Source: Planctomycetota bacterium (GTDB lineage: Bacteria; Planctomycetota; GCA-002687715; DRQF01). From it: DNA of 54,551 nucleotides. The notes beneath the pieces are model-generated. The model was not told where the DNA came from. It ran no database searches and saw nothing but the letters and a program-made list of their open reading frames with translations. The translations under genes were made by a program, and so were the position numbers. The stretch is taken from NCBI GenBank assembly GCA_027001995.1, contig JALTLO010000066.1, forward strand, positions 1 through 54,551. The letters are read 5' to 3'. Below are positions 6,055 through 39,939 of the stretch, piece by piece (the first letter of the stretch is position 1; each line of letters begins with the position of its first letter).

Positions 6055-7083
6055 ATGAAGTACACCCTCATCGGTTTCATTTTCTTCGTTTTTCTTTGCG
6101 GCTTTTCTGCTTGTGGGAGCGACTCCGGGCGTGCTCCTCGCGATACGTCTGCTGATCGCAACCAGAGAGGCAATGAGAATAACCGCCCAAGTGGGTCTGG
6201 GCTCTGGGACATGCTGGCTCGTTCTGAGGAAGACAAAGCCCAGCGAAAGGCCAACGAAAAAGCCCGAGAGGTGCGACTCCAGGCCCAACTGCAAAAGGGG
6301 ATGGCCCAACTTCCTGTGGAGCAACGCAACAATATGGTTCGTTGGTGGCAGGAGTTCATTCGTTTGCAGCCAGCATGGATTGAGCATCGTCATCTTTGGC
6401 GGGCTTATGGCCAAGGGGCCCGTGAGATCCTGGCGGAGAATCTCATTATCGCCATGGTGCGTGCTTTCGAAAAAAACAATGGTCCCATCTACAAACGGGC
6501 CCGTTCCGAGCTCTTTGACCTCAAAGAAGAGGCCACCCCTTATCTTGTGGCTGGCTTGGCTGATGGGCGTGGGGATGCAGTGACCCGCAAGCACTGTGTT
6601 GAGATGTTGGGCTGGTACGGTGGAAGTGCGGTTGAGAAAATCGATGAAGCCTACGGCGATGCGGGGCGTGATGCCCGTCTTGACTTGCTGCGTGCGATCA
6701 AAGCTATGGGACCAGCCGGTGCGCCCCAGTCGATCCCTTTTCTTCGCAACGCCCTCAATCGGGAAGACGACTATCGTCTGCGCTTGACAGCTATTCAGGC
6801 CTTAGGTGCCAGCGAAGATCCTCGTAGTATCCCGCTGTTGATAGAGTGCCTGAAAGATCGCGACCTTTCGATTCGTAAGTTCGGCGCTGGGACCTTGAGC
6901 CACTTCAAGACGGATGCGGCCATTCTGGCTCTCATCGAATTGCTCGAAAGAAGCGAAAGAAACGTCCTTCCCGAAAACAGAGAAGGCGAAGTTGTTCAAA
7001 ACTGTATACACGCCCTGCGGGCCATGACTGGCCAGTCATTTCGGCGGGGCGCACAATGGAGACGCTGGTGGAACCGAAGGTAA
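6055..7083 (+). CDS. HEAT-repeat (PBS lyase-like) lipoprotein
   Basis: MKYTLIGFIFFVFLCGFSAC signal with lipobox after AGGA; HEAT repeats LRLTAIQALG, SIPLLIECLKD, IRKFGAGTL. Confidence 0.75.
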   Translation: MKYTLIGFIFFVFLCGFSACGSDSGRAPRDTSADRNQRGNENNRPSGSGLWDMLARSEEDKAQRKANEKAREVRLQAQLQKGMAQLPVEQRNNMVRWWQEFIRLQPAWIEHRHLWRAYGQGAREILAENLIIAMVRAFEKNNGPIYKRARSELFDLKEEATPYLVAGLADGRGDAVTRKHCVEMLGWYGGSAVEKIDEAYGDAGRDARLDLLRAIKAMGPAGAPQSIPFLRNALNREDDYRLRLTAIQALGASEDPRSIPLLIECLKDRDLSIRKFGAGTLSHFKTDAAILALIELLERSERNVLPENREGEVVQNCIHALRAMTGQSFRRGAQWRRWWNRR

Positions 7084-7694
7084 GCAAAGCTGTCGATTGG
7101 GAGTTAGCTCTCAAGAAACCTGGGACAACCTGTTGTATCACAGGGGTCACATTCGAAGTTGGTGACGACTACGTCAGCTTTATTCGCTATGACGACGAGG
7201 AAGGCTGGGGACGCGCGGATATTTCTCCCGAAGCGTTTGATGCCTTGGAAGAGAAGCCTTTTGCCTACTGGCGAGCGAAGGTTGCCGCTCCTGAAGCCAA
7301 GAAAGCCCGGCCTCTTGACCTAAATTTCTTGACTGAGTTCTTTGTTCGTTTGCAGGACCAAAAAGACGTGACAGAACATCGCGAGGTGGGGTACATTGTC
7401 ACCTTGTTGTTGGTGCGCAAGAAGGTCTTGAAGCAATTGGGTTTGGTGGTCGAAGACGAAGCCGAGTTTCTTGAAGTTCGTTTCACCAAAGAAAAAGAAG
7501 GCCCCACCTATCGCGTTCCTGTGCCCGAGATCAATGCAGAAAAGATGGAGATCATCCGTGATGATCTGGGACGCATCTTCAACCTCGATGATGGTGCTTC
7601 ACCTAAGAAGGATGAGAACCGCCCCGGGGAGGCCGACGAACTTGATGCCATGATGGCCGAAGAGGATGAAGAAGAAAAGAGTTCTGCTTCTTGA
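7056..7694 (+). CDS. Conserved hypothetical protein (resembles a PVC-type family), acidic tail
   Basis: Overlaps the upstream gene; C..TG..F..G..Y.S, R.D.S.EA, F.YW and LLL.RKK.L pattern; exact start uncertain. Confidence 0.65.
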   Translation: METLVEPKVSKAVDWELALKKPGTTCCITGVTFEVGDDYVSFIRYDDEEGWGRADISPEAFDALEEKPFAYWRAKVAAPEAKKARPLDLNFLTEFFVRLQDQKDVTEHREVGYIVTLLLVRKKVLKQLGLVVEDEAEFLEVRFTKEKEGPTYRVPVPEINAEKMEIIRDDLGRIFNLDDGASPKKDENRPGEADELDAMMAEEDEEEKSSAS

Positions 7695-7721
7695 GCGTGA
7701 TCTGTCATTGATCCCAACTAG

Positions 7722-7989
7722 CCCGAATAATTCACAACCTCGCGGCCGCCAGGAGCGGCATAGCGTCCGTACTCTGCATCAGTCGCCCCTCACGACCACG
7801 TGGTCGCATTAACTAGAAGAAGATCTCACAGATGACCCACGTGAGGTCGCAATCCTGGTTATGATTACGAACACTCTGCCACCCCTGGCTATGGTGTGTT
7901 TCGAAGAGAAGTCTTAAGAATTATTGTGCTGAGCTTTCTTTGCGGAGCATTTTCTTGCACAACGACCACGATCTCATGAATTAGTCGGG
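7722..7989. mobile_element. 268-bp MITE-like element, copy 1
   Basis: Ungapped match to 37933-38200 (31 mismatches by hand count); imperfect TIRs CCCGAATAATTCA.../...TGAATTAGTCGGG; flanks CTAG/CCAG. Confidence 0.85.
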
Positions 7990-8020
7990 CCAGCTCATCA
8001 ATTGAATGAGATGAATTTCG

Positions 8021-8058
8021 GAAACCGCCTCCTGAAAAGGAAGGCGGTTTCTTCTTTT
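8021..8058. terminator. Intrinsic terminator between convergent genes
   Basis: GAAACCGCCTCCT-GAAA-AGGAAGGCGGTTTC followed by TTCTTTT. Confidence 0.75.
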
Positions 8059-8719
8059 AGAGTTTCGGCCCGAAGCAAAGGTCGCCGGCGTCGCCCAAGC
8101 CGGGGACGATATAACCATCGCCATTGAGTTCTTCGTCGCAGGTGACGTACCAAATTTCTGCGTTCTTGATGTGGGCTTTGATGCGGTCATAGGCACCTCG
8201 CCATCCCACCAAACCTGCCACGATGAAACGGCGGGGTTCTTGATCGCGATCCAAGAGCCGCTGGTAAATGTCAATAATGGTAGACCCGGTGGCCACCATG
8301 GGGTCCACGAAGATGACGTCTCGTCCCCCACAATTCGTGAGAGCCTCATATCCCAAGTTAATCTTGATGCCACCGGAGGCATCGAGGGCGGAGCCTTCTG
8401 CCCGAGCGGCCCCAAAGAACATGGTGTCGCTCTGGCCAAAGATTTCCAGCATACCGTCGAGAAAGGGGATCCCAGCGCGGAGGGCAGTCGCCAAAATTGG
8501 CGATTCTACCAGGGTGTCTACGAGTTTGGTTCCCAAAGGCGTCGGGATCTCGACCTTCTTTCCCTCAAGGCTCTTGGCAATCTCGTAAGCCAGGAGAGTC
8601 CCTGTCATAGACATGTTACGGCGAAAAGTTTGGCGGTCTTGTTGGAGATCGACGTGCCTGAGTTGGCTCAAGAGAGGGCCCAAAGCAGGATTTCCATTTT
8701 GATCTAGGATGTTCAGCAT
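8057..8719 (-). CDS. upp: Uracil phosphoribosyltransferase
   Basis: LRAG, PRPP-binding VIFVDPMVATGST, C-terminal YIVPGLGDAGD. Confidence 0.96.
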   Translation of the reverse strand: MLNILDQNGNPALGPLLSQLRHVDLQQDRQTFRRNMSMTGTLLAYEIAKSLEGKKVEIPTPLGTKLVDTLVESPILATALRAGIPFLDGMLEIFGQSDTMFFGAARAEGSALDASGGIKINLGYEALTNCGGRDVIFVDPMVATGSTIIDIYQRLLDRDQEPRRFIVAGLVGWRGAYDRIKAHIKNAEIWYVTCDEELNGDGYIVPGLGDAGDLCFGPKL

Positions 8720-12998: not shown

Positions 12999-14504
12999 GT
13001 GACTACTGCGACTGAGATTGAGATGAACCTCAACGAACTCTTGCGATCAGCTGGCTTGCCTGAGTTCGAATCTGAATCTCCAGCTATTGATTTCGTCACT
13101 TGCGATTCCCGCTCAGTAAGGCCCAATTCTCTCTTTGTGGTTCTGGCTGGGAGTCAAGTTAATGGGGCACGCTATGTTCAAGATGCTCTTGATAACGGGG
13201 CTGTCGCTTTGGCCACCTCGAGGCCCATTCTTCATCAGACCTCCATACCCACCATAACCTTAGTGGATCCTCGAGCAGACTACGCCAAACTCTGCGCTGC
13301 TTTCTATGATCATCCAGCTTTGGGCCTTGACGTCATTGGTGTTACTGGCACCAACGGAAAAACAACGTCGACGTTCATGATCGAAGAAATTCTCAAGACA
13401 GCAAACCGTAGGGTTGGTCTCATCGGAACGATTCACAGCCAGATTGGCTCTCGGACTGAAACCGCCACGATGACGACTCCAGGGGCAGAGGACTTGCAAC
13501 GGCTCTTGCGGGAAATGAATGACGAAGGGTTGGATTCCGTGGCCTTAGAGGTTTCCTCTCACGCTCTCGACCAGGACCGTCTTTGCGGTTGCCCATTGCA
13601 AGTAGCAGCCTTTACCTCCATGGCGCGGGATCATCTTGATTATCACCAGGATGTTGCTGCCTATCATGCGGCGAAGCGCCGATTGCTTGAGTACTTGAGC
13701 CCGGGGGGGTGGGCTGTTCTCAATGCCGACGCTCCCGAATGTCAATTGCTGGAAACTCTGGTGCCTGAGGGTTGTCAGACTCTGCGCTATTCCCTCTCTG
13801 GGAATGAAGCGGAAGTCTCGGCTCAGATCCTTGCCATGGACTTGAGGGGCATGACCCTCGAGATCAGTATCGCAGGCGAGACTGCGACTTGTGCAACTAA
13901 GATTGTTGGGGTCCACAATGCCGCGAACATTCTTTTGGCCAGCGCTGTAGCCTGGGGCTTGGGCACGTCGCTTACGGACATCGTTCGGGGCATTGAGTCA
14001 CTTAATCATGTGGAAGGCCGCTTCGAAGTCTTGGAGTTGGCCTGTGACTTTGATGTGCTGGTGGACTATGCCCATGCACCGGATGCCTTCGAAAACATGT
14101 TGGGAACTCTCCGAGCTTTGACTGGCGGTGAGCTTCATGTGGTGTTTGGCTGTGGTGGGGATCGAGACAGTGGCAAACGTCCTCTTATGGGGCGTATTGC
14201 CGAGATTATGGCGGACACCATCATGCTCACGGACGACAACCCACGTTCGGAAAATCCGGACAAGATCGCCATGGACATCAAGAGCGGGATGAAACAACCA
14301 GAAAGGGTGTCATACGTGGCGAACCGCCGAGAAGCGATTCTCCACGTCTTGGACAACGCCAGGGCACACGACGTTGTCCTCTTGGCAGGAAAGGGCCATG
14401 AAGATTGCCAAGTTTCGGCTGGGGAGGTCTATTCCCATAGTGACCGACTCGTGGCAGAGGAATGGAGTGCTTGGCGCAGCGGGAAACAGGGGAGGGCCCC
14501 ATGA
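12999..14504 (+). CDS. murE: UDP-MurNAc-tripeptide synthetase (meso-DAP type)
   Basis: GVTGTNGKTT, EVSSH, DHLDYH, DYAH, FGCGGDRD, DNPR, AGKGHE; the start may be ATG 13023. Confidence 0.97.
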   Translation: MTTATEIEMNLNELLRSAGLPEFESESPAIDFVTCDSRSVRPNSLFVVLAGSQVNGARYVQDALDNGAVALATSRPILHQTSIPTITLVDPRADYAKLCAAFYDHPALGLDVIGVTGTNGKTTSTFMIEEILKTANRRVGLIGTIHSQIGSRTETATMTTPGAEDLQRLLREMNDEGLDSVALEVSSHALDQDRLCGCPLQVAAFTSMARDHLDYHQDVAAYHAAKRRLLEYLSPGGWAVLNADAPECQLLETLVPEGCQTLRYSLSGNEAEVSAQILAMDLRGMTLEISIAGETATCATKIVGVHNAANILLASAVAWGLGTSLTDIVRGIESLNHVEGRFEVLELACDFDVLVDYAHAPDAFENMLGTLRALTGGELHVVFGCGGDRDSGKRPLMGRIAEIMADTIMLTDDNPRSENPDKIAMDIKSGMKQPERVSYVANRREAILHVLDNARAHDVVLLAGKGHEDCQVSAGEVYSHSDRLVAEEWSAWRSGKQGRAP

Positions 14505-23411: not shown

Positions 23412-25667
23412 GTGATGAATCCTGCTGAAAATGTTGATCTTCCTGTGAGTCCAGTGAACCGCCGAATTACTTGGTTGATTCTTGGTTTTGCAGCTCTGAG
23501 CTTGGGTGCCAGTGTTTTGCCACTCATGCCTAGTGTTAGTTCGTTCTTGCCCTTTGGGTTGATGGACCGCAGGGGGGCAATGGCCCTCTATTCAGTTTTT
23601 CTCGTGATGTACATGGCCTTGGTTTTTCCGACAACCTTGCTCCCACCGCTTTCACCTGCAACTGGAGAAAGGCGCAAGCAAAGGGCCATGGCTTGGTGGT
23701 GGGTGGGGTTCTTCATGTTGGCTTTCTCCGGGGTGCCTCTCTTCGTATTGGCTTACATTGCCGGTGTGAGCTTCAAGGGGGTTGTCGCTGTCTTGCTGTG
23801 GGCCGGGGTTTTCCATGGTATGGCCACTTTCTGGACCTGCGTCTTTGGCTTTAGATCCCGACCGATTCTCGTGGCGCTCAATTTCTTGATTGTTGGTGTT
23901 ATTCCTCTTTTGTCCCATTTCGGCACCTTGCTGGGGGGAAAAGATGCCCTGAATTCACCGATCACCCTCATTCTAGGAATGACCCGCCACTTTGCCGAGC
24001 CCGAGCTGTTCTTGCCGGGGGGGCTCTGTTTTGGCATCTACGGCGGGCTCTGGGCCCTGTGCTTCTTGAGCAAAAGCCGTGTTGCTCTTTCTTTGCTTTT
24101 CGTTGTGGCCTCGGTTTTCTCTTTCGGGTTTTCCGGCCCGAACACCGGGGCCGTCCTCAGGGAAGACTCGCAGCAGAAATCTTCCCCCATGGTTCGTTCG
24201 ATTACCCAAGGACGCCATGTGGCGGGACGTGTCTTTCCTCTCGAGGTTTCTGCGAAGCCCGGAGAGGTTGTGAAGATTTCAGTAGGTGGGGGCACAGAGA
24301 TCACTTGGTCGCCGAAGAATGGCAGCCCCTCTTCACTATGGTTTTATCCAACAATTGAGTCCAACGCTGATCCTGTTTGCGTGAACGTCGATGGCCTTGA
24401 TCTGGCACGAATTAAGTTGGACGCCGTTTCCCCCCGACAAAGTCTCGTTTTGTTCTTTGACATTCCCAAAGTGGGATCAGGCCCATCCTGGGTTGGCATT
24501 CCTTTCTTGTCTCCAAGACCATTTTTGTCTCCCTTAGGTTACGACCCTTTTGGTGGCGTTGTCTTGACGGAAGAGCGCTATCTTCAGTTCTCTGTGGAAG
24601 AGCGGGCTGTTCTTCGAACTTGGGCGGAGACCGGTGGGCACTTGGTCATTCTGGGCGCGAAGGACCCTGGTGGTTCAACTTTGGGACAAGGACGGGTTCT
24701 GCGCCGTCGGGAAATGACCCTCCCAAATGACTTCAGCCCCCAACTTCGGAGTCGACATGTCAACGAATCAAATCTCTATTCGAGCTTTGCCCTGCCAGAT
24801 TGGGGGAAAGTCGATCTGACCCGTTTGCTCCTGTTTCTGGGCATCTATCACGCTGTTTTCTATGTCATCTTCTTGCTGCCCCTGATTTTCGACGCGAAAA
24901 AGTCGTTGGCTGTCTATTTGGTGTCTGTTGCATTTGTCCTGACTCTGGTTGTGGTGGGGTCTTACTACACCCTCAAGCGGGTTTTCTTGGCAGACAATCA
25001 AGTGCTGCAACAGAATCTGTGTACTTGGCGTGGGGCTCTGGATGAGGAAGGGGGGCTGACTTTGTTCCAAGAGACCTGTTTTGCCTCATTCAATGGCAGC
25101 CCCAGCGATCTTACCTTCCAAAGAGCTCATTCTCCCCGCTTGGTACCTGTCCCGGGCGTGGGCCTCCATTGCAAACAGTACGTGACGCCTTCTGGGGAGC
25201 AGATCACCGTCTCTGGGTTCATTCTTGATCGTTTCGCTGGCAAGCAGGTGGTGAAAATGGGGCAGCAATGGAAGTTACCCTTCACCGTCCAAATCCAGGG
25301 GCGAACAGTGAGTTTACGCCCTCGGCCCGGGGTCAAAGATGAATCGGGTCTTCTGACTGCCGAGCGTCTCGCGGCCTTCTATCGCCAAGGTGGGCAACTC
25401 TACGGCGCTGAACTGCGGGGACAGAGGATTCAGGTGGCGAAAACCCCAGATTCATTGATCTGGCAAGGGGTGCTCCCCGAGAATTTGCGGGAGGCAGGAA
25501 TCTTGCCATTTCTTCGCTATGGCCTCGGAAGACACACACATCGGGACGAGAATGTGCTGGTTATTCTCATGGAGGGTGCCAATAGCCTCCATGATGGCTC
25601 TGATTATCTGTCTCGGCGTGACTTGTTGCAGATGCTTGTGATTCCTGTTGACCTTTCGATGAAGTGA
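23412..25667 (+). CDS. Large hypothetical membrane protein (multi-TM N-terminus, soluble domain possibly GATase-like, TM hairpin)
   Basis: About 7 TM segments, then YD...GVVL...LRTWAETGGHLVIL, two further TMs. Confidence 0.65.
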   Translation: MMNPAENVDLPVSPVNRRITWLILGFAALSLGASVLPLMPSVSSFLPFGLMDRRGAMALYSVFLVMYMALVFPTTLLPPLSPATGERRKQRAMAWWWVGFFMLAFSGVPLFVLAYIAGVSFKGVVAVLLWAGVFHGMATFWTCVFGFRSRPILVALNFLIVGVIPLLSHFGTLLGGKDALNSPITLILGMTRHFAEPELFLPGGLCFGIYGGLWALCFLSKSRVALSLLFVVASVFSFGFSGPNTGAVLREDSQQKSSPMVRSITQGRHVAGRVFPLEVSAKPGEVVKISVGGGTEITWSPKNGSPSSLWFYPTIESNADPVCVNVDGLDLARIKLDAVSPRQSLVLFFDIPKVGSGPSWVGIPFLSPRPFLSPLGYDPFGGVVLTEERYLQFSVEERAVLRTWAETGGHLVILGAKDPGGSTLGQGRVLRRREMTLPNDFSPQLRSRHVNESNLYSSFALPDWGKVDLTRLLLFLGIYHAVFYVIFLLPLIFDAKKSLAVYLVSVAFVLTLVVVGSYYTLKRVFLADNQVLQQNLCTWRGALDEEGGLTLFQETCFASFNGSPSDLTFQRAHSPRLVPVPGVGLHCKQYVTPSGEQITVSGFILDRFAGKQVVKMGQQWKLPFTVQIQGRTVSLRPRPGVKDESGLLTAERLAAFYRQGGQLYGAELRGQRIQVAKTPDSLIWQGVLPENLREAGILPFLRYGLGRHTHRDENVLVILMEGANSLHDGSDYLSRRDLLQMLVIPVDLSMK

Positions 25668-28986: not shown

Positions 28987-29017
28987 CTAATCCGACTGAT
29001 TCATGAGATCGCCGTCG
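28987..29017 (-). repeat. Isolated terminal-repeat remnant of the MITE-like element
   Basis: CTAA-TCCGACTGATTCATGAGATCGCCGTCG resembles the reverse complement of the element right end (CCCGACTAATTCATGAGATCGTGGTCG) plus its TTAG flank. Confidence 0.6.
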
Positions 29018-29037
29018 CGAGGTCGAGGAGTATTCAG

Positions 29038-31062
29038 TTAGTCTTCGACAAAGGGGATACTTAAGATGACAGTTGTGCCAGCGTTGACTTTGCTCTCAAT
29101 GCTCAATTCACCGCCATAACCTTCAATTGTCTTCTTGCAAATCGCCAAGCCCAAGCCAGTGCCAGAACTGCGGGTGGTGAAGTAGGGTTCAAAGAGTCGT
29201 TCAGAGATGTTGTCGTCGATCCCTTTGCCTGTGTCAGTAATGCGAATATCAAGACGACCCGGTTTGTCACCTTCCTTGAAGCGGAAGACGCTCACAGAGA
29301 CCATGCCACCATCCGGCATGGCTTCGAAAGCATTGTTGAAGAGATTGAAGAACACCCTCATAATTTCATCGCGATCAATGTTGAGGATGACATCCGTGTC
29401 CAAAAACGATTCTAACTTGACGTCGATACCTGATGATTCTTTGTTTGAATAGAGCTGGACGCATTCTTTGATCAATTCCAAGGCGCTGTGATGTTTGCGT
29501 TCCGTTTTCGGGAAGGCAGCATAGTTCGAAAAGTTGGAGGCAATTTTTCGTAATGAGTCAGCTTGGGTGACAATGTTGTGAACGCTTTCTTTCAGGATAT
29601 TTTCGAAATCTGGGTGCTTGTCTATGTAAGCGCGATGGACTAATTGAGCGGACAGCTTGATGGGCGTCAATGGGTTCTTGATCTCATGGGCCACTTGGTT
29701 GGCCATCTCCCGCCAAGCTGCTGTTTTCTCGGCTTGAATTAGTCTCTTGTTCGAAACCTTCAGGTCTTCGGCCATCTTGTTGAAGGAATCGCCCAAGAGG
29801 CCGATTTCGTCTTGAGTTTCGATTTCAACACGAGCGTCTAAGTTGCCCTTGGCAATTTCATTGGTCTGCTGAATCAGCACGCGGATGGGACGTGTAATGC
29901 GACGGGAGCTGACTGCGATCAAAATGATGATGATACCGGCGACCAAGAGGCCAGCGATAAACATGACCTTGCCCATTTGGTAGGTGGCTTTCAGGTAGTC
30001 GTCTTCATCGATGCCGAAGCCTAATTGCCACCCTGTCGCTCGAACGGGAGCGAATGCCGCGACTTTTTCCTTACGGTACTTGTAGTGGGTGCTGCCACGA
30101 TGTCCCTCGGCCTTGAGCATGGCCGATCGCAATTTGTCTAAACCATGATCTTCGACCAGACGGCTGGAATAGAGGCTCAGGTATCTGTGGGCAATCACCG
30201 TGTTGAAATCGGTGTTAAAAAGGAAGGTATAACCGGAACTGAATTGGATGTCGTCTCCTTCGAAATCTTCATTGACCCGGTCGAGCAAGTCTTGGATCGA
30301 TCGCCAATTGAAGAACACAACCAAGATCGCTTGGGTGATCTCACCTCCGACGATGTCCTCGCGACTAAACTCGGAGAGAGGAATACCCTTGGTGAATCCG
30401 AAGGAATAGGCCTCCGGGTTTTTTTGCCGTTCACTATCGACTTGGTCTGATTCTTCATCTAGAAACTTAGGATAACCGTAGGCCTCACGTATGAGAGGTT
30501 CGGTTCCCCAGTCAATGACGGCAGACTGGCCGGTGGCGGCCTTATCCCACCATTTTCGCGATCGCAAGTTTATGCCCGCCAGTGGATTGCTTTCATCGTC
30601 GGTGAACAGGCGAAAATCGGCGGTTCCTTCTAGCTTGCCGCTACGGACGTCTTCTCTCCTGCGATTACTGGTGACGAGAATGTTTCCCTCTAAGTCAATG
30701 ACGGCCAAAAGGTCGGCGTTACCCATGATCTCAATTGAGTTGTTGAGGTCAGTACGAATGCGCCCCAATGCCATTTGATAAGCTGTTTCGTTCGGCTGCC
30801 GGACGGAAAGTTCGTAGACGTTCTTGCGCAGGTTGCTGGAACGGGCCAAAAGCTCAGTGCCGTTCTGCATACTCTTGAGGGAGGTTTCCAAGTTGATGGA
30901 AGTGTCTCGTGTCACCCGCTTGACGAAACGTTCGACATAGGTTTCTGCCATGGTGTCGCGGGCTACGAAGTAGGCGGTCACCCCTACTAAGGTCATCGGC
31001 ACGATGCCCAAGAGCAAGAAAACGAATGCAAGTTTGAACGAGAGGCTACGGGGTATTCTCAA
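29038..31062 (-). CDS. Sensor histidine kinase (Cache-like periplasmic region, HAMP, NtrY-type HisKA, HATPase)
   Basis: Two TMs, HAMP DEIGLL..SFN.M, AAWREMA.QVAHEIKNPLTPI, NLF.NA, DTGKG, FEPYFTT, GTGLGL. Confidence 0.93.
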   Translation of the reverse strand: MRIPRSLSFKLAFVFLLLGIVPMTLVGVTAYFVARDTMAETYVERFVKRVTRDTSINLETSLKSMQNGTELLARSSNLRKNVYELSVRQPNETAYQMALGRIRTDLNNSIEIMGNADLLAVIDLEGNILVTSNRRREDVRSGKLEGTADFRLFTDDESNPLAGINLRSRKWWDKAATGQSAVIDWGTEPLIREAYGYPKFLDEESDQVDSERQKNPEAYSFGFTKGIPLSEFSREDIVGGEITQAILVVFFNWRSIQDLLDRVNEDFEGDDIQFSSGYTFLFNTDFNTVIAHRYLSLYSSRLVEDHGLDKLRSAMLKAEGHRGSTHYKYRKEKVAAFAPVRATGWQLGFGIDEDDYLKATYQMGKVMFIAGLLVAGIIIILIAVSSRRITRPIRVLIQQTNEIAKGNLDARVEIETQDEIGLLGDSFNKMAEDLKVSNKRLIQAEKTAAWREMANQVAHEIKNPLTPIKLSAQLVHRAYIDKHPDFENILKESVHNIVTQADSLRKIASNFSNYAAFPKTERKHHSALELIKECVQLYSNKESSGIDVKLESFLDTDVILNIDRDEIMRVFFNLFNNAFEAMPDGGMVSVSVFRFKEGDKPGRLDIRITDTGKGIDDNISERLFEPYFTTRSSGTGLGLAICKKTIEGYGGELSIESKVNAGTTVILSIPFVED

Positions 31063-36842: not shown

Positions 36843-37871
36843 CTACTTGCTCTTGATCCAAGCTTCGATGAGCTTGATGCCTTCCATGTCGGGGACTGTC
36901 GACAGCTCATCAGGCATACGGAAGTCACTCACTGTTCGCATGCGACGGACAAGCTTTGAGCGCCTTGGCTTTCCGGGATATACAACTCCGGCAGTCATTT
37001 CGAAGTCTTTGTTCAGACGAAGCATGCCCGTTTTGTGCATGGGCGTATCAAAGCGCAAATCAAGCGTTCCACTGCCATTACCCTCGGGAACGTGGCAGGT
37101 GCCGCAGTTGACGTCCAAATAGCTTCGGGCACGGGCGTCCAATTTGAGTGATTTGTCTTTGTAGTCGACTTGCTTGGGAAGACCTTCCAGGCTCTTGGGG
37201 AGCCCATCCAAAATACCGATATTCTTGAAGTGCAAGAGTTGGTTGATTTTCTTGCCCTTGATGGTGACGTCCATATTGAGCTGGGATGTTTTGGCACCCA
37301 GGATAAGCGACGAAGTCTTGTCGTGGCAACGAAAACAGCGGAGGTCAGGGGTGAGCTTCCAAACTTGAGTACTGTGACCGTAATTGGCGAAGAATTCATA
37401 GCCATCTTTGTGACGGGTTGCGTCTTTTTGGTCTTCGTCCCAGGCGTAACTGGCAAAGGTGAGATTCTTGCCGTTTTTCTCCAACATGCGTGTTTCAAGA
37501 TAGAGGCGGTCACCTTCTTCTTCGATGTAGATGGTGAACATGAAGCGCGTACCTTGGGGGAAATCCCAGGTACCATCTTTCTTGAAGCCAATCTTCTTGC
37601 CTTTGGGCACCAGAATGAATCGTTCTTTGTGACCGCCATCCGTCCACAGAGGGGCCCGCACCTCATAGGGGATCAGGTCGGAAGAAAGAATTTTCTTCGC
37701 CGTGGACTGATAGAATCCAGTTTGGGAAAGTTTCTTTGGCAAGTTGTCAACTTGCTGCTTTTGTTCTTCGACCTCTTCGTCTTGAAAGGCATTGACGGCG
37801 TTTGACGGTGCCAAGAGTACAATGGATAGAGTCCCCAACAAGAGAAGGGCTGAGAGGAGGCGGATCATCAT
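36843..37871 (-). CDS. Exported diheme c-type cytochrome (SO2930-like)
   Basis: Signal peptide; LP..LS.TG, PLWTDG..K.RFI..P, ETR; heme motifs CFRCH and CGTCH; RMP. Confidence 0.82.
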   Translation of the reverse strand: MMIRLLSALLLLGTLSIVLLAPSNAVNAFQDEEVEEQKQQVDNLPKKLSQTGFYQSTAKKILSSDLIPYEVRAPLWTDGGHKERFILVPKGKKIGFKKDGTWDFPQGTRFMFTIYIEEEGDRLYLETRMLEKNGKNLTFASYAWDEDQKDATRHKDGYEFFANYGHSTQVWKLTPDLRCFRCHDKTSSLILGAKTSQLNMDVTIKGKKINQLLHFKNIGILDGLPKSLEGLPKQVDYKDKSLKLDARARSYLDVNCGTCHVPEGNGSGTLDLRFDTPMHKTGMLRLNKDFEMTAGVVYPGKPRRSKLVRRMRTVSDFRMPDELSTVPDMEGIKLIEAWIKSK

Positions 37872-37932
37872 GTTTCTTCATTTCCAGAAAAATACTTCAG
37901 TGGGCCCATCTTACCAGGGATCACAGGGTTAG

Positions 37933-38200
37933 CCCGAATAATTCACGACCTCGGGGCCGCCAGGGGGGGCATAGCGCCCGTACTTTGCATCAGTCGCCCC
38001 TCACGACCACGTGGTCGCATTAACTAAAAGAAGATCTCACAGATTACCCACCTGAGGCCCCAATCCTGGTTATGACTACGAACGCTTTGCCACCCCTGGC
38101 CGTGTTGTGTTTTGAAAAGAAGTCTGAAGAACGGTTGGTCTGAGGTTTCTTTGCGGGGCATTTTCTTACCCAACGACCTCGATCTCATGAATTAGCCGGG
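37933..38200. mobile_element. 268-bp MITE-like element, copy 2
   Basis: Same length as copy 1; TIRs CCCGAATAATTCA.../...TGAATTAGCCGGG; perfect TTAG direct repeats at 37929-37932 and 38201-38204. Confidence 0.85.
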
Positions 38201-38295
38201 TTAGAAAGAGCACTGGAATTTCTCCCGATGATGCCCCCACGAAAAGGCCGGAGGGCTTTGGACATCCGTACCCCGAGAACGACATAATGCCTCCC

Positions 38296-39939
38296 ATGAA
38301 AGCAGTTTGGGGCATTTTATTGGCGACATTCTTGGGGGCCTGCGGTTTTACCGGTGAGGTGGGCGTACGACCATGGGATGTCCTTGTAGTCAACAACATG
38401 GCCGATCCTGCCTTTCTTGACCCTGGACTTCAATCGGCTGCGGAAGACCAACGCATCACCCTGGCTCTTTTTGAAGGATTGGTGACGCCTCACCCCAAGA
38501 CCCTCGAACCTCTCCCCGGGGTGGCTCAACACTGGACGATCTCCGCCGATGGTCTGGTTTATCGCTTCACTCTTCGGTCCTGCCAATGGAGCGACGGTGT
38601 GGCTGTCACCGCCAACGATTTTCTTTACGCTTGGCGTCGTGTTCTTACTCCACCGAGCCGAAACTCCTCCCGCAAATTCGCAGACCAAAACTACTATGTG
38701 TCAGCTCCCTACGTGGATGTGGTTTTTGCCATTCGCGGGGCGAAGGCTTGGCATCAAGGACGGCTGGGGTCATTTGATCAAGTGGGCATTCGTGTGATCG
38801 ACGAGCATAATTTGGAAGTTACTTTGCAGCAGCCAACGCCTTGGTTTCTTGAGCTTCTGAGCTTTCCAACTTTTGCCCCGGTTCCACGTCATGTGGTGGA
38901 GCGCCATGGCCGAGACTGGACTCGAGTTGAGAACTTCGTTGGCAATGGGCCGTTTAAGTTAACGGAGCGCCGTCAAGGAGATCTGCTGCGAGTGAGGCGT
39001 TCCGAGACCTATTGGGATCGAGAAGCTGTAGGTCTGGGGGGGATCGACTACCTTTCGACGGACCAGGTAGACACAGCCATTGATCAATTCTTGGCTGGAG
39101 AATCTGATTGGGTTCGTTCATTTAATCCGAAGAAAGTTAGGGCTTGGCGAAGGGATCAGGAATTGACCACCTACCTGCGGGCACCGGAATTCTTGGCCAC
39201 TTTTTTCTTTCGATTGAACACGGTCCTGGATGTCTTCAAGGATCCCCGGGTACGCCGCGCTTTGTCTTTGGCTATTGACCGAGAGTCCATCACGCGCTAC
39301 GTCACCGGGCTCGGTGAAGTTGCTACATCCCGCTTCGTTCCAGACTGCTTGACCGAAAACTCTCCCTGGCCAAAACGTCAGTATTCTGGGTCGTTCCGAC
39401 CAGAGGAAGCCCGGGAGATTTTGGCCGCATGTGGCTTTCCCAAGGGCCAAGGTTTGCCGGTTATCACCATCGCATTCAACACAGATGTCAAGAATCGGGC
39501 TATTGCTGAAGCTGTTCAACAGATGTGGGCCAAAGAGTTGGGCATCACCGTACTCCTGGAGAACCGGGAGAAAAAAGTGCACTTTGCCAAAGAAAGAGCA
39601 GGGGACTACATCATTTCCCGAGGCAATTGGATTGGCGATTTCAGTGACCCCGTTACTTTCTTGGACGTCTTTCGTTCTGACGGCTCCAGCAATCGCTGTG
39701 GCTGGCAAAACAAAGACTACGATCGCCTTCTTGACCGTGCGGCCGCAGAGCTTGATGAGGTCAGACGCTTTTCCCTCTTGGAGAAAGCCGAACACATTCT
39801 CTGTGTCGAAGACCCGCCGATCATTCCTATTTTTTTCTATCGCACGGCTTACTTGCTGAAGCCTGGCCGTTTCCTGGGGATCTATGAGAATAGGCGCAAC
39901 ATCCACCCTCCCAAACATATTCGGCCAAGAAACTCATGA
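38296..39939 (+). CDS. oppA: Oligopeptide ABC transporter substrate-binding lipoprotein
   Basis: Lipobox LGAC; LFEGL, PGVA..W.IS.DG..Y.F.LR, WSDG, NGPF, WIGD..DP. Confidence 0.9.
   Translation: MKAVWGILLATFLGACGFTGEVGVRPWDVLVVNNMADPAFLDPGLQSAAEDQRITLALFEGLVTPHPKTLEPLPGVAQHWTISADGLVYRFTLRSCQWSDGVAVTANDFLYAWRRVLTPPSRNSSRKFADQNYYVSAPYVDVVFAIRGAKAWHQGRLGSFDQVGIRVIDEHNLEVTLQQPTPWFLELLSFPTFAPVPRHVVERHGRDWTRVENFVGNGPFKLTERRQGDLLRVRRSETYWDREAVGLGGIDYLSTDQVDTAIDQFLAGESDWVRSFNPKKVRAWRRDQELTTYLRAPEFLATFFFRLNTVLDVFKDPRVRRALSLAIDRESITRYVTGLGEVATSRFVPDCLTENSPWPKRQYSGSFRPEEAREILAACGFPKGQGLPVITIAFNTDVKNRAIAEAVQQMWAKELGITVLLENREKKVHFAKERAGDYIISRGNWIGDFSDPVTFLDVFRSDGSSNRCGWQNKDYDRLLDRAAAELDEVRRFSLLEKAEHILCVEDPPIIPIFFYRTAYLLKPGRFLGIYENRRNIHPPKHIRPRNS

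Follow-up and report, generated by a model that had tools for sequence, protein, structure and literature searches.

In a 54,551-nucleotide stretch of planctomycete DNA (hereafter the window; contig C66 of a 5.22-Mb assembly in 204 contigs that is 92% complete), we found copies of a short repeat that are, with a probability of roughly 85%, a non-autonomous transposon (MITE), having no gene of its own, bearing the CCCGAMTNATTCAYGA ends of a clade of the IS1380 family (DDE type) and being moved by a transposase of that clade. The repeat family, its ends and flanks, an empty allele, and IS1380-family elements with the same ends led us to file it as an IS1380-type MITE. As far as the sequence tells, this is an ordinary kind of selfish DNA, and the transposase family is IS1380, corrected from the IS5/IS701 assignment of a first-pass annotation of the same DNA.

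Window positions 7722-7989 (copy 1) and 37933-38200 (copy 2) aligned without gaps over 268 columns, with 31 mismatches in 268 (88.4% identity), and the similarity between them ended sharply at either element edge. Each copy has 27-bp terminal inverted repeats that match at 20 of the 27 positions. The first 16 bases of the family consensus are identical at all 16 positions to the left tip of an IS1380-family insertion sequence (IS) from another planctomycete, G299; copy 1 departs from the consensus at position 15, with A in place of G. Both copies occupy intergenic DNA. Copy 1 follows the stop codon of ORF 7056-7694 (+) at a distance of 28 bp, and 68 bp separate it from the end of the upp-like (uracil phosphoribosyltransferase-like) ORF 8057-8719 (-); copy 2 is flanked by two divergent ORFs, 36843-37871 (-) and 38287-39939 (+). 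Within the copies, the longest stop-free frame ranges from 41 to 73 aa and differs from copy to copy. The gapless 268-bp alignment, mismatches, terminal repeats, flanks, and intergenic positions given in the first-pass annotation were all reproduced when measured again, and its statement that no transposase lies in the window agrees with the lack of PF01609 and PF13701 matches on contig C66. It had counted two copies in the window; both full copies are real, but a third, 47 bp long, had been overlooked. The features are listed in Table 1.

Table 1. Element copies and their flanks in the window
Feature	Position	Strand	Description
Copy 1 left flank	7718..7721		CTAG, first of the two putative 4-bp target repeats
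MITE copy 1	7722..7989	+	268 bp, subfamily A
Left terminal inverted repeat, copy 1	7722..7748	+	IS1380-type end motif in the first 16 bases
Right terminal inverted repeat, copy 1	7963..7989	-	20/27 match to the left end
Copy 1 right flank	7990..7993		CCAG, second putative target repeat; 1 transition from CTAG
Mini copy flank	28987..28990		CTAA
Third copy	28991..29037	-	47-bp degenerate mini form, little beyond two terminal repeats
Mini copy flank	29038..29041		TTAG; its TTA, read in reverse complement, is the stop codon of ORF 29038-31062 (-)
Copy 2 left flank	37929..37932		TTAG
MITE copy 2	37933..38200	+	268 bp, subfamily A; in a divergent promoter region
Copy 2 right flank	38201..38204		TTAG; identical to the left flank, giving a perfect direct 4-bp duplication that is non-palindromic

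When copy 1 was used as a BLASTN query against its own genome, it was found at 47 places at E ≤ 0.001, and the sequence is therefore repeated far beyond chance. Its best paralogue is C49:51391-51658 (93% identity). A search by nhmmer with a profile of six full copies gave 63 hits at E ≤ 0.01, and merging hits at E ≤ 1e-4 gave 48 loci on 39 contigs (contigs counted by hand). The size of the copies ranges from 40 to 269 bp. Six belong to a class of about 268 bp (two on C66 and the others on C49, C158, C142, and C153), five to a class of about 230 bp (C107, C125, two on C179, and a truncated one on C125), and two to a 166-bp class; many are shorter, down to 40-46 bp, with both ends kept. The 230-bp form differs by more than a simple deletion, about 50 internal bases being swapped for 15-18 others. 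Pairwise identity is 82-92.5% among the 268-bp copies and 92-96% among the 230-bp copies; the 230-bp subfamily appears to be the younger of the two.

The 16-base motif CCCGAMTNATTCAYGA, with one mismatch at most, marks 77 ends genome-wide, of which 36 fall within the 48 loci and 41 elsewhere. Many of the latter come from forms of about 40-61 bp consisting of hardly more than two terminal repeats, and mini forms in roughly this size range resembling the one at 28991-29037 were seen about a dozen times elsewhere in the genome. Furthermore, there are two head-to-tail dimers with a spacer of exactly 4 bases (C179:23401-23629 with 23634-23863, and C125:13673-13902 with 13907-13991); such a spacer would be expected if a second element had inserted into the target duplicated by an earlier one. 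The copies are small, lack a gene, have terminal inverted repeats, and are dispersed in large number, as is usual for MITEs. With 48 loci and 77 ends, the proposal of a non-autonomous, MITE-like family with many genomic copies was borne out. The family had also been called uncharacterised, which is true of this particular sequence family but not of the kind of element.

The flanks point to YTAR as the target. This tetranucleotide stands beside 35 of the 77 ends (CTAA 18, TTAG 8, CTAG 6, TTAA 3) against a background of 0.49% of all genome tetranucleotides, in line with the YTAR-type flanks first noted in the window. Only one of the 13 two-ended copies, copy 2 with TTAG/TTAG, has a perfect duplication; in the remaining ones the flanks are 1 to 3 bases apart, mostly by transitions (CTAG/CCAG, CTAA/CTAG, TTAG/CTGG), and the copy on C118, whose flanks are not YTAR-like, is an exception. 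CTAG is the rarest of the 256 tetranucleotides in this genome (5630 counts on both strands; Markov observed/expected ratio, 0.34), whereas the ratio is 1.12 for TTAG and CTAA, which may explain why the flanks are mostly transition variants of CTAG. The old copies by themselves fit a target that was YTAR from the start and a CTAG target that decayed by C-to-T changes on either strand equally. Intact related IS elements have perfect CTAG, TTAA, and CTAA duplications, showing that YTAR is at least tolerated. Three observations underlie a duplication length of 4 bp: the flanks of copy 2, those of the intact IS elements, and a length difference of 272 bases to an empty allele.

This allele was found on a 13,785-bp contig of a sequencing run from a separate study (X2), which aligns with window positions 7300-7712 and 7991-8400. 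Its flanks are 91-95% identical to the window (36 other letters in 413 and 19 in 410), and it skips 278 bases and has 6 other letters in between, so that it is shorter by a net 272 bases, i.e., 268+4, a difference that by itself also fits a TA duplication with a 270-bp element. To judge from the alignment, the contig represents an empty copy 1 allele with a single tetranucleotide, its flanks being too diverged for the ancestral target to be read. At the copy 2 site, the flanking genes are syntenic in the congeners G001 and G002, from whose intergenic region the element is wholly absent; measured between corresponding anchor points, this region is 202 and 225 bases long in the congeners versus 466 and 490 here, and the intergenic DNA is too diverged for the target sequence to be read. 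At the copy 1 locus, synteny is broken in both congeners. The comparison with empty orthologous sites thus yielded a related strain without copy 1 and two congeners without copy 2.

Insertion is largely confined to spaces between genes: 46 of the 48 loci are intergenic, with an overlap of at most 20 bases with any ORF of at least 120 aa. At seven of the 48 loci (counted by hand), the element adjoins the stop-codon end of a neighboring ORF at a distance of at most 2 bases, and the mini copy of the window is likewise at a stop codon (TTA at 29038-29040). The YTAR target is therefore often the stop codon itself, which the duplication would restore.

The assignment to the IS1380 family comes from complete elements with the same ends. 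In G299 (G299:C34:170283-172192), a 1910-bp IS has the MITE consensus end as its left end and CCCGACTTCTTCACGA as its right end, with CTAG preceding the former and CGAA following the latter. Its only long ORF (486 residues) scored 420 bits with PF13701 and 383.6 bits with NF033539, the NCBIfam model 'IS1380 family transposase' (cut-off, 180). The metagenome contig L106 carries a complete IS of 1651 bp with an intact 478-aa transposase and TTAA on both sides, arranged as TTAA, CCTGAATAATTCATGAAG...CTTCATGAATAGATCAGG, TTAA (left tip also given as CCTGAATAATTCATGA); compared with the MITE end, it matches at 15 of 16 positions on the left and at about 13 of 16 on the right (hand count). The closest named relatives of the L106 transposase are of the IS1380A type of Acetobacter (35-36% identity over 96% of the length), and relatives in the genome contig collection reached only 31-39% identity. 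In G005, a member of the same bacterial family, four identical IS copies have the ends CCCGCTTCGCTCACCAC and the flanks CTAG/CTAG in three cases and CTAA/CTAG in the fourth, and in a Flavobacteriaceae MAG (L108) an IS with the ends CCTGAATTATTCATAA is flanked by the duplication CTAA/CTAA.

IS1380-family transposases bounded by MITE-type ends are thus present in G299 and L106. The first-pass annotation had proposed looking for a transposase gene with the same ends; such genes exist in these two sources, but the MITE's own genome offers only a 151-residue relic. It had also named a match to a known IS family as speaking against its reading. The ends do match such a family, IS1380, by which the element is re-filed and is still a MITE.

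Four PF13701 matches were found in the own genome, namely the relic on C58 and divergent genes on C187, C134, and C128. The relic (C58:47598-48095, -) corresponds to the C-terminal part of a transposase, is interrupted by stops upstream, and is 44% identical to the G299 enzyme and 76% identical to the L106 enzyme. When it is read side by side with the L106 element, a putative decayed right end lies about 200 bp past the stop of the relic, the same distance as in L106. The three divergent enzymes are 22-24% identical to that of G299, and the ends of their elements are unlike those of the MITE; their flanks are CTAG, or CTAA on one side and TTAG on the other. The elements at C134:25.7-27.5 kb and C128:2.1-3.8 kb (L045, L046) encode a 471-aa transposase (PF13701, 115 bits) and have the terminal repeat CGTYGCATT...; they are flanked by CTAA (left) and TTAG (right), and a solo MITE-like end is found about 25 bp away. 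The third gene, at C187:30.1-32.1 kb (L043), is open over 500 aa and is cut off by the end of the contig; CTAG follows its right end, ...GATTCATGAGG.

No intact transposase with MITE ends was detected in this 92% complete assembly of 204 contigs. When ends separated by as much as 6 kb were paired across the own genome, three candidates for an autonomous copy emerged, none of which was a transposon with a transposase: C102:3637-5250 contains unrelated ORFs, C19:35527-36311 lacks a transposase, and C158:26247-31106 consists of two separate elements. Furthermore, the MITE interior gave nothing above chance against 27 IS1380 loci of the bacterial family (nhmmer and blastn-short) and no match to L106. 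Since about 16 bases per tip are all that it has in common with any IS, descent from a particular IS by deletion is not supported.

IS5-subgroup and IS701-family transposases also make YTAR duplications, and the first-pass annotation had accordingly named them as the mobilizer of the MITE. The flanks fit this proposal, and the genome contains 11 PF01609 (DDE_Tnp_1) matches, some of them IS5-like and multicopy at contig ends. We nevertheless abandoned it as very unlikely: the genome has no match to PF13546 (IS701-type), the end motif is missing within 3 kb of all 11 PF01609 loci at up to two mismatches and occurs at chance level at three, and the ends correspond exactly or nearly to those of IS1380-family elements. 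PF13359 (Harbinger-type) likewise had no match in the genome. That elements with these ends encode IS1380-family and not IS630-family enzymes also weighs against an IS630/Tc1-mariner-type element, for which TA alone within CTAG would be duplicated and the outer bases would belong to the element or the target. PF13358 (DDE_3, IS630-type) had no match in the genome, and the perfect non-palindromic 4-bp direct repeats of copy 2 (TTAG/TTAG) and of the IS in L108 (CTAA/CTAA) go beyond TA. Although the flanks are TA-centered, the length of the empty allele fits 270+2 as well as 268+4, and the inner flank bases are complementary in 7 of 12 two-ended copies (hand count), which is no worse than under the 4-bp model, we consider such an element highly improbable.

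A different kind of explanation is a selected, structured noncoding RNA or regulatory repeat (REP-like, riboswitch-like, or an sRNA gene) in place of selfish DNA. The element folds better than its shuffles (z of -2.6 on the + strand and -5.26 on the - strand), ten copies have in common a 76-pair consensus structure in which the terminal repeats, and likewise a second inverted repeat in the interior, form base pairs, and copies are found in UTR-like positions. Hairpin potential is given by construction in a palindromic MITE, however, and a compensatory change was seen in only 1 of the 76 pairs, with an unfavorable covariation term of +1.39. Rfam 15, searched with window positions 7400-8400 at E ≤ 1, had no known noncoding RNA matching the element and one chance-level match outside it (E 0.76). 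The copies show no orientation bias with respect to co-directional neighboring ORFs (9 same, 12 opposite; hand count), they occupy tandem (21), convergent (12), and divergent (11) contexts alike, they tolerate internal deletions while the ends remain, and the element is missing from the syntenic sites of congeners. We regard a selected RNA or regulatory repeat as extremely improbable and retain the IS1380-type MITE as our reading.

Apart from this, the genome harbors a multicopy IS5-like PF01609 transposase with copies at contig ends (C149:34299-35246, C40:3-596, C12:22732-24039, and C30:566-976), which is unrelated to the MITE; on C12, the copy is truncated, with read-through into an unrelated 436-aa frame.

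The exact 21-base left end occurred in no other record of the genome and metagenome contig collections, and a DNA search of 40 relatives gave only weak, diverged copies in the congener G001. This species of the same genus has its own diverged version of the family, of about 237 bp with about 74% identity over the left arm (e.g., L031:1349-1585), and about 20 ends carrying the variant CCCGCATTATTCAYGA. Other planctomycete MITEs have the same ends and CTAG or TTAG flanks, with lengths of 219 bp in G011, 173 bp in G113, and 45 bp in G122. The 16-base motif was matched at least once in 226 of 401 phylum genomes and the reversed control pattern in almost none, a count that overstates the true spread, since 2 of 20 sampled loci, which came mostly from genomes with few matches and had one mismatch in 19 of the 20 cases, were CTAG-flanked. 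At least 10 ends, similar in number on the two strands, were present in about 26 of the 401 genomes, the own genome included (hand count). G113, G125, G283, and G364 each have 65-75 IS1380-type ends and no PF13701 match. These genomes are MAGs, in which repeated IS copies are often left unassembled, so the absence of PF13701 is no proof; they contain either orphan MITE families or IS copies that were not assembled.

The MITE resembles known IS1380-family elements (NF033539, PF13701; type element IS1380A of Acetobacter; IS1247) in that its repeat starts with CC, has TCAC at about positions 11-14, and is accompanied by a short putative target duplication. It differs from them in lacking a transposase gene and in sharing only about 16 terminal bases. 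For IS1247, Table 2 of PMC3281130 gives a 5-bp direct repeat and inverted repeats of 16/13 bp. Two IS1380A-type copies on Acetobacter ascendens plasmids (L110/L111) have the ends CGCGGAAATCTCACA and, on both sides, TCGA and not YTAR; judging from these two copies only, the type element may have a palindromic tetranucleotide target other than YTAR. The MITEPye1 element of Paracoccus yeei, which the description in PMC11578231 attributes to IS1182-family elements and not to IS1380, is, as portrayed there, likewise small, gene-less, and intergenic, with direct repeats, IS-like terminal inverted repeats, and a predicted stem-loop. According to the same description, it is present in 1-3 copies per chromosome and linked to IS1182, whereas the MITE reported here has 48 loci, is linked to IS1380, and forms a graded series of lengths between 268 and about 40 bp. 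The literature we searched contains hardly anything on IS1380-derived MITEs: no title among the matches listed for IS1380 together with MITE was that of a dedicated paper, and the literature search found no paper on a CTAG target site of IS1380.

For the family described here, an IS1380-family transposase made elsewhere would bind both ends and cut the MITE out or copy it; insertion would then take place at YTAR (CTAG, TTAG, CTAA, or TTAA), with duplication of those 4 bases. From the sequences, we infer that such a transposase moved these copies and that the family is now largely inactive in its own genome, because the 268-bp copies are 82-92.5% and the 230-bp copies 92-96% alike, the duplications are mostly decayed, and the transposase is a relic only.

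The piggyBac transposons of eukaryotes have ends of the form CCC...GGG and the target TTAA. The MITE and its relatives are similar to them in their 4-bp TA-centered target, which in the case of the IS in L106 is TTAA/TTAA, and different in that they belong to another kingdom, with what is probably only a distant sequence relation, and use YTAR where piggyBac is strictly tied to TTAA. In PMC10813416, IS1380 transposases are taken as the prokaryotic outgroup of piggyBac. Since the termini are CCC/CCT...GGG/AGG and the TA-centered 4-bp YTAR target is strict, perfect TTAA/TTAA and CTAG/CTAG duplications being among the cases seen, it is conceivable, though rather unlikely, that the IS1380 clade behind the MITE works like a bacterial piggyBac, perhaps with seamless excision. 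If so, the empty allele could be a footprint-free excision site and not a site that was never occupied. The MITE-rich genomes without a transposase (four of the four tested, plus the own genome with its relic) would then preserve the remains of past bursts, the driver having disappeared after its own excision, and the clade would provide a simple bacterial model for target choice in the superfamily.

For annotation, the IS1380-type reading means that about 50-70 short intergenic repeats in this MAG can be labeled IS1380-type MITEs, and that comparable repeat sets in roughly two dozen of the 401 sampled phylum genomes can be given the same label. This avoids confusion with regulatory motifs, small RNAs, and IS5/IS701 debris. 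For the IS1380 clade, it indicates that YTAR, often the stop codon of a gene, is the target, and that the MITEs persist after the transposase gene has gone.

In the gap that separates copy 1 from the end of the upp-like gene, window positions 8020-8058 form a strong hairpin (-23 kcal/mol; z of -3.86) followed by a T-run, which looks like an intrinsic terminator. If it acts as one, copy 1 would lie in the 3' untranslated part of the upstream transcript. A simple promoter/terminator scan of positions 7600-8150 called no terminator, the hairpin at 8020-8058 included, and gave a single weak promoter-like site, which extends across the left junction of copy 1.
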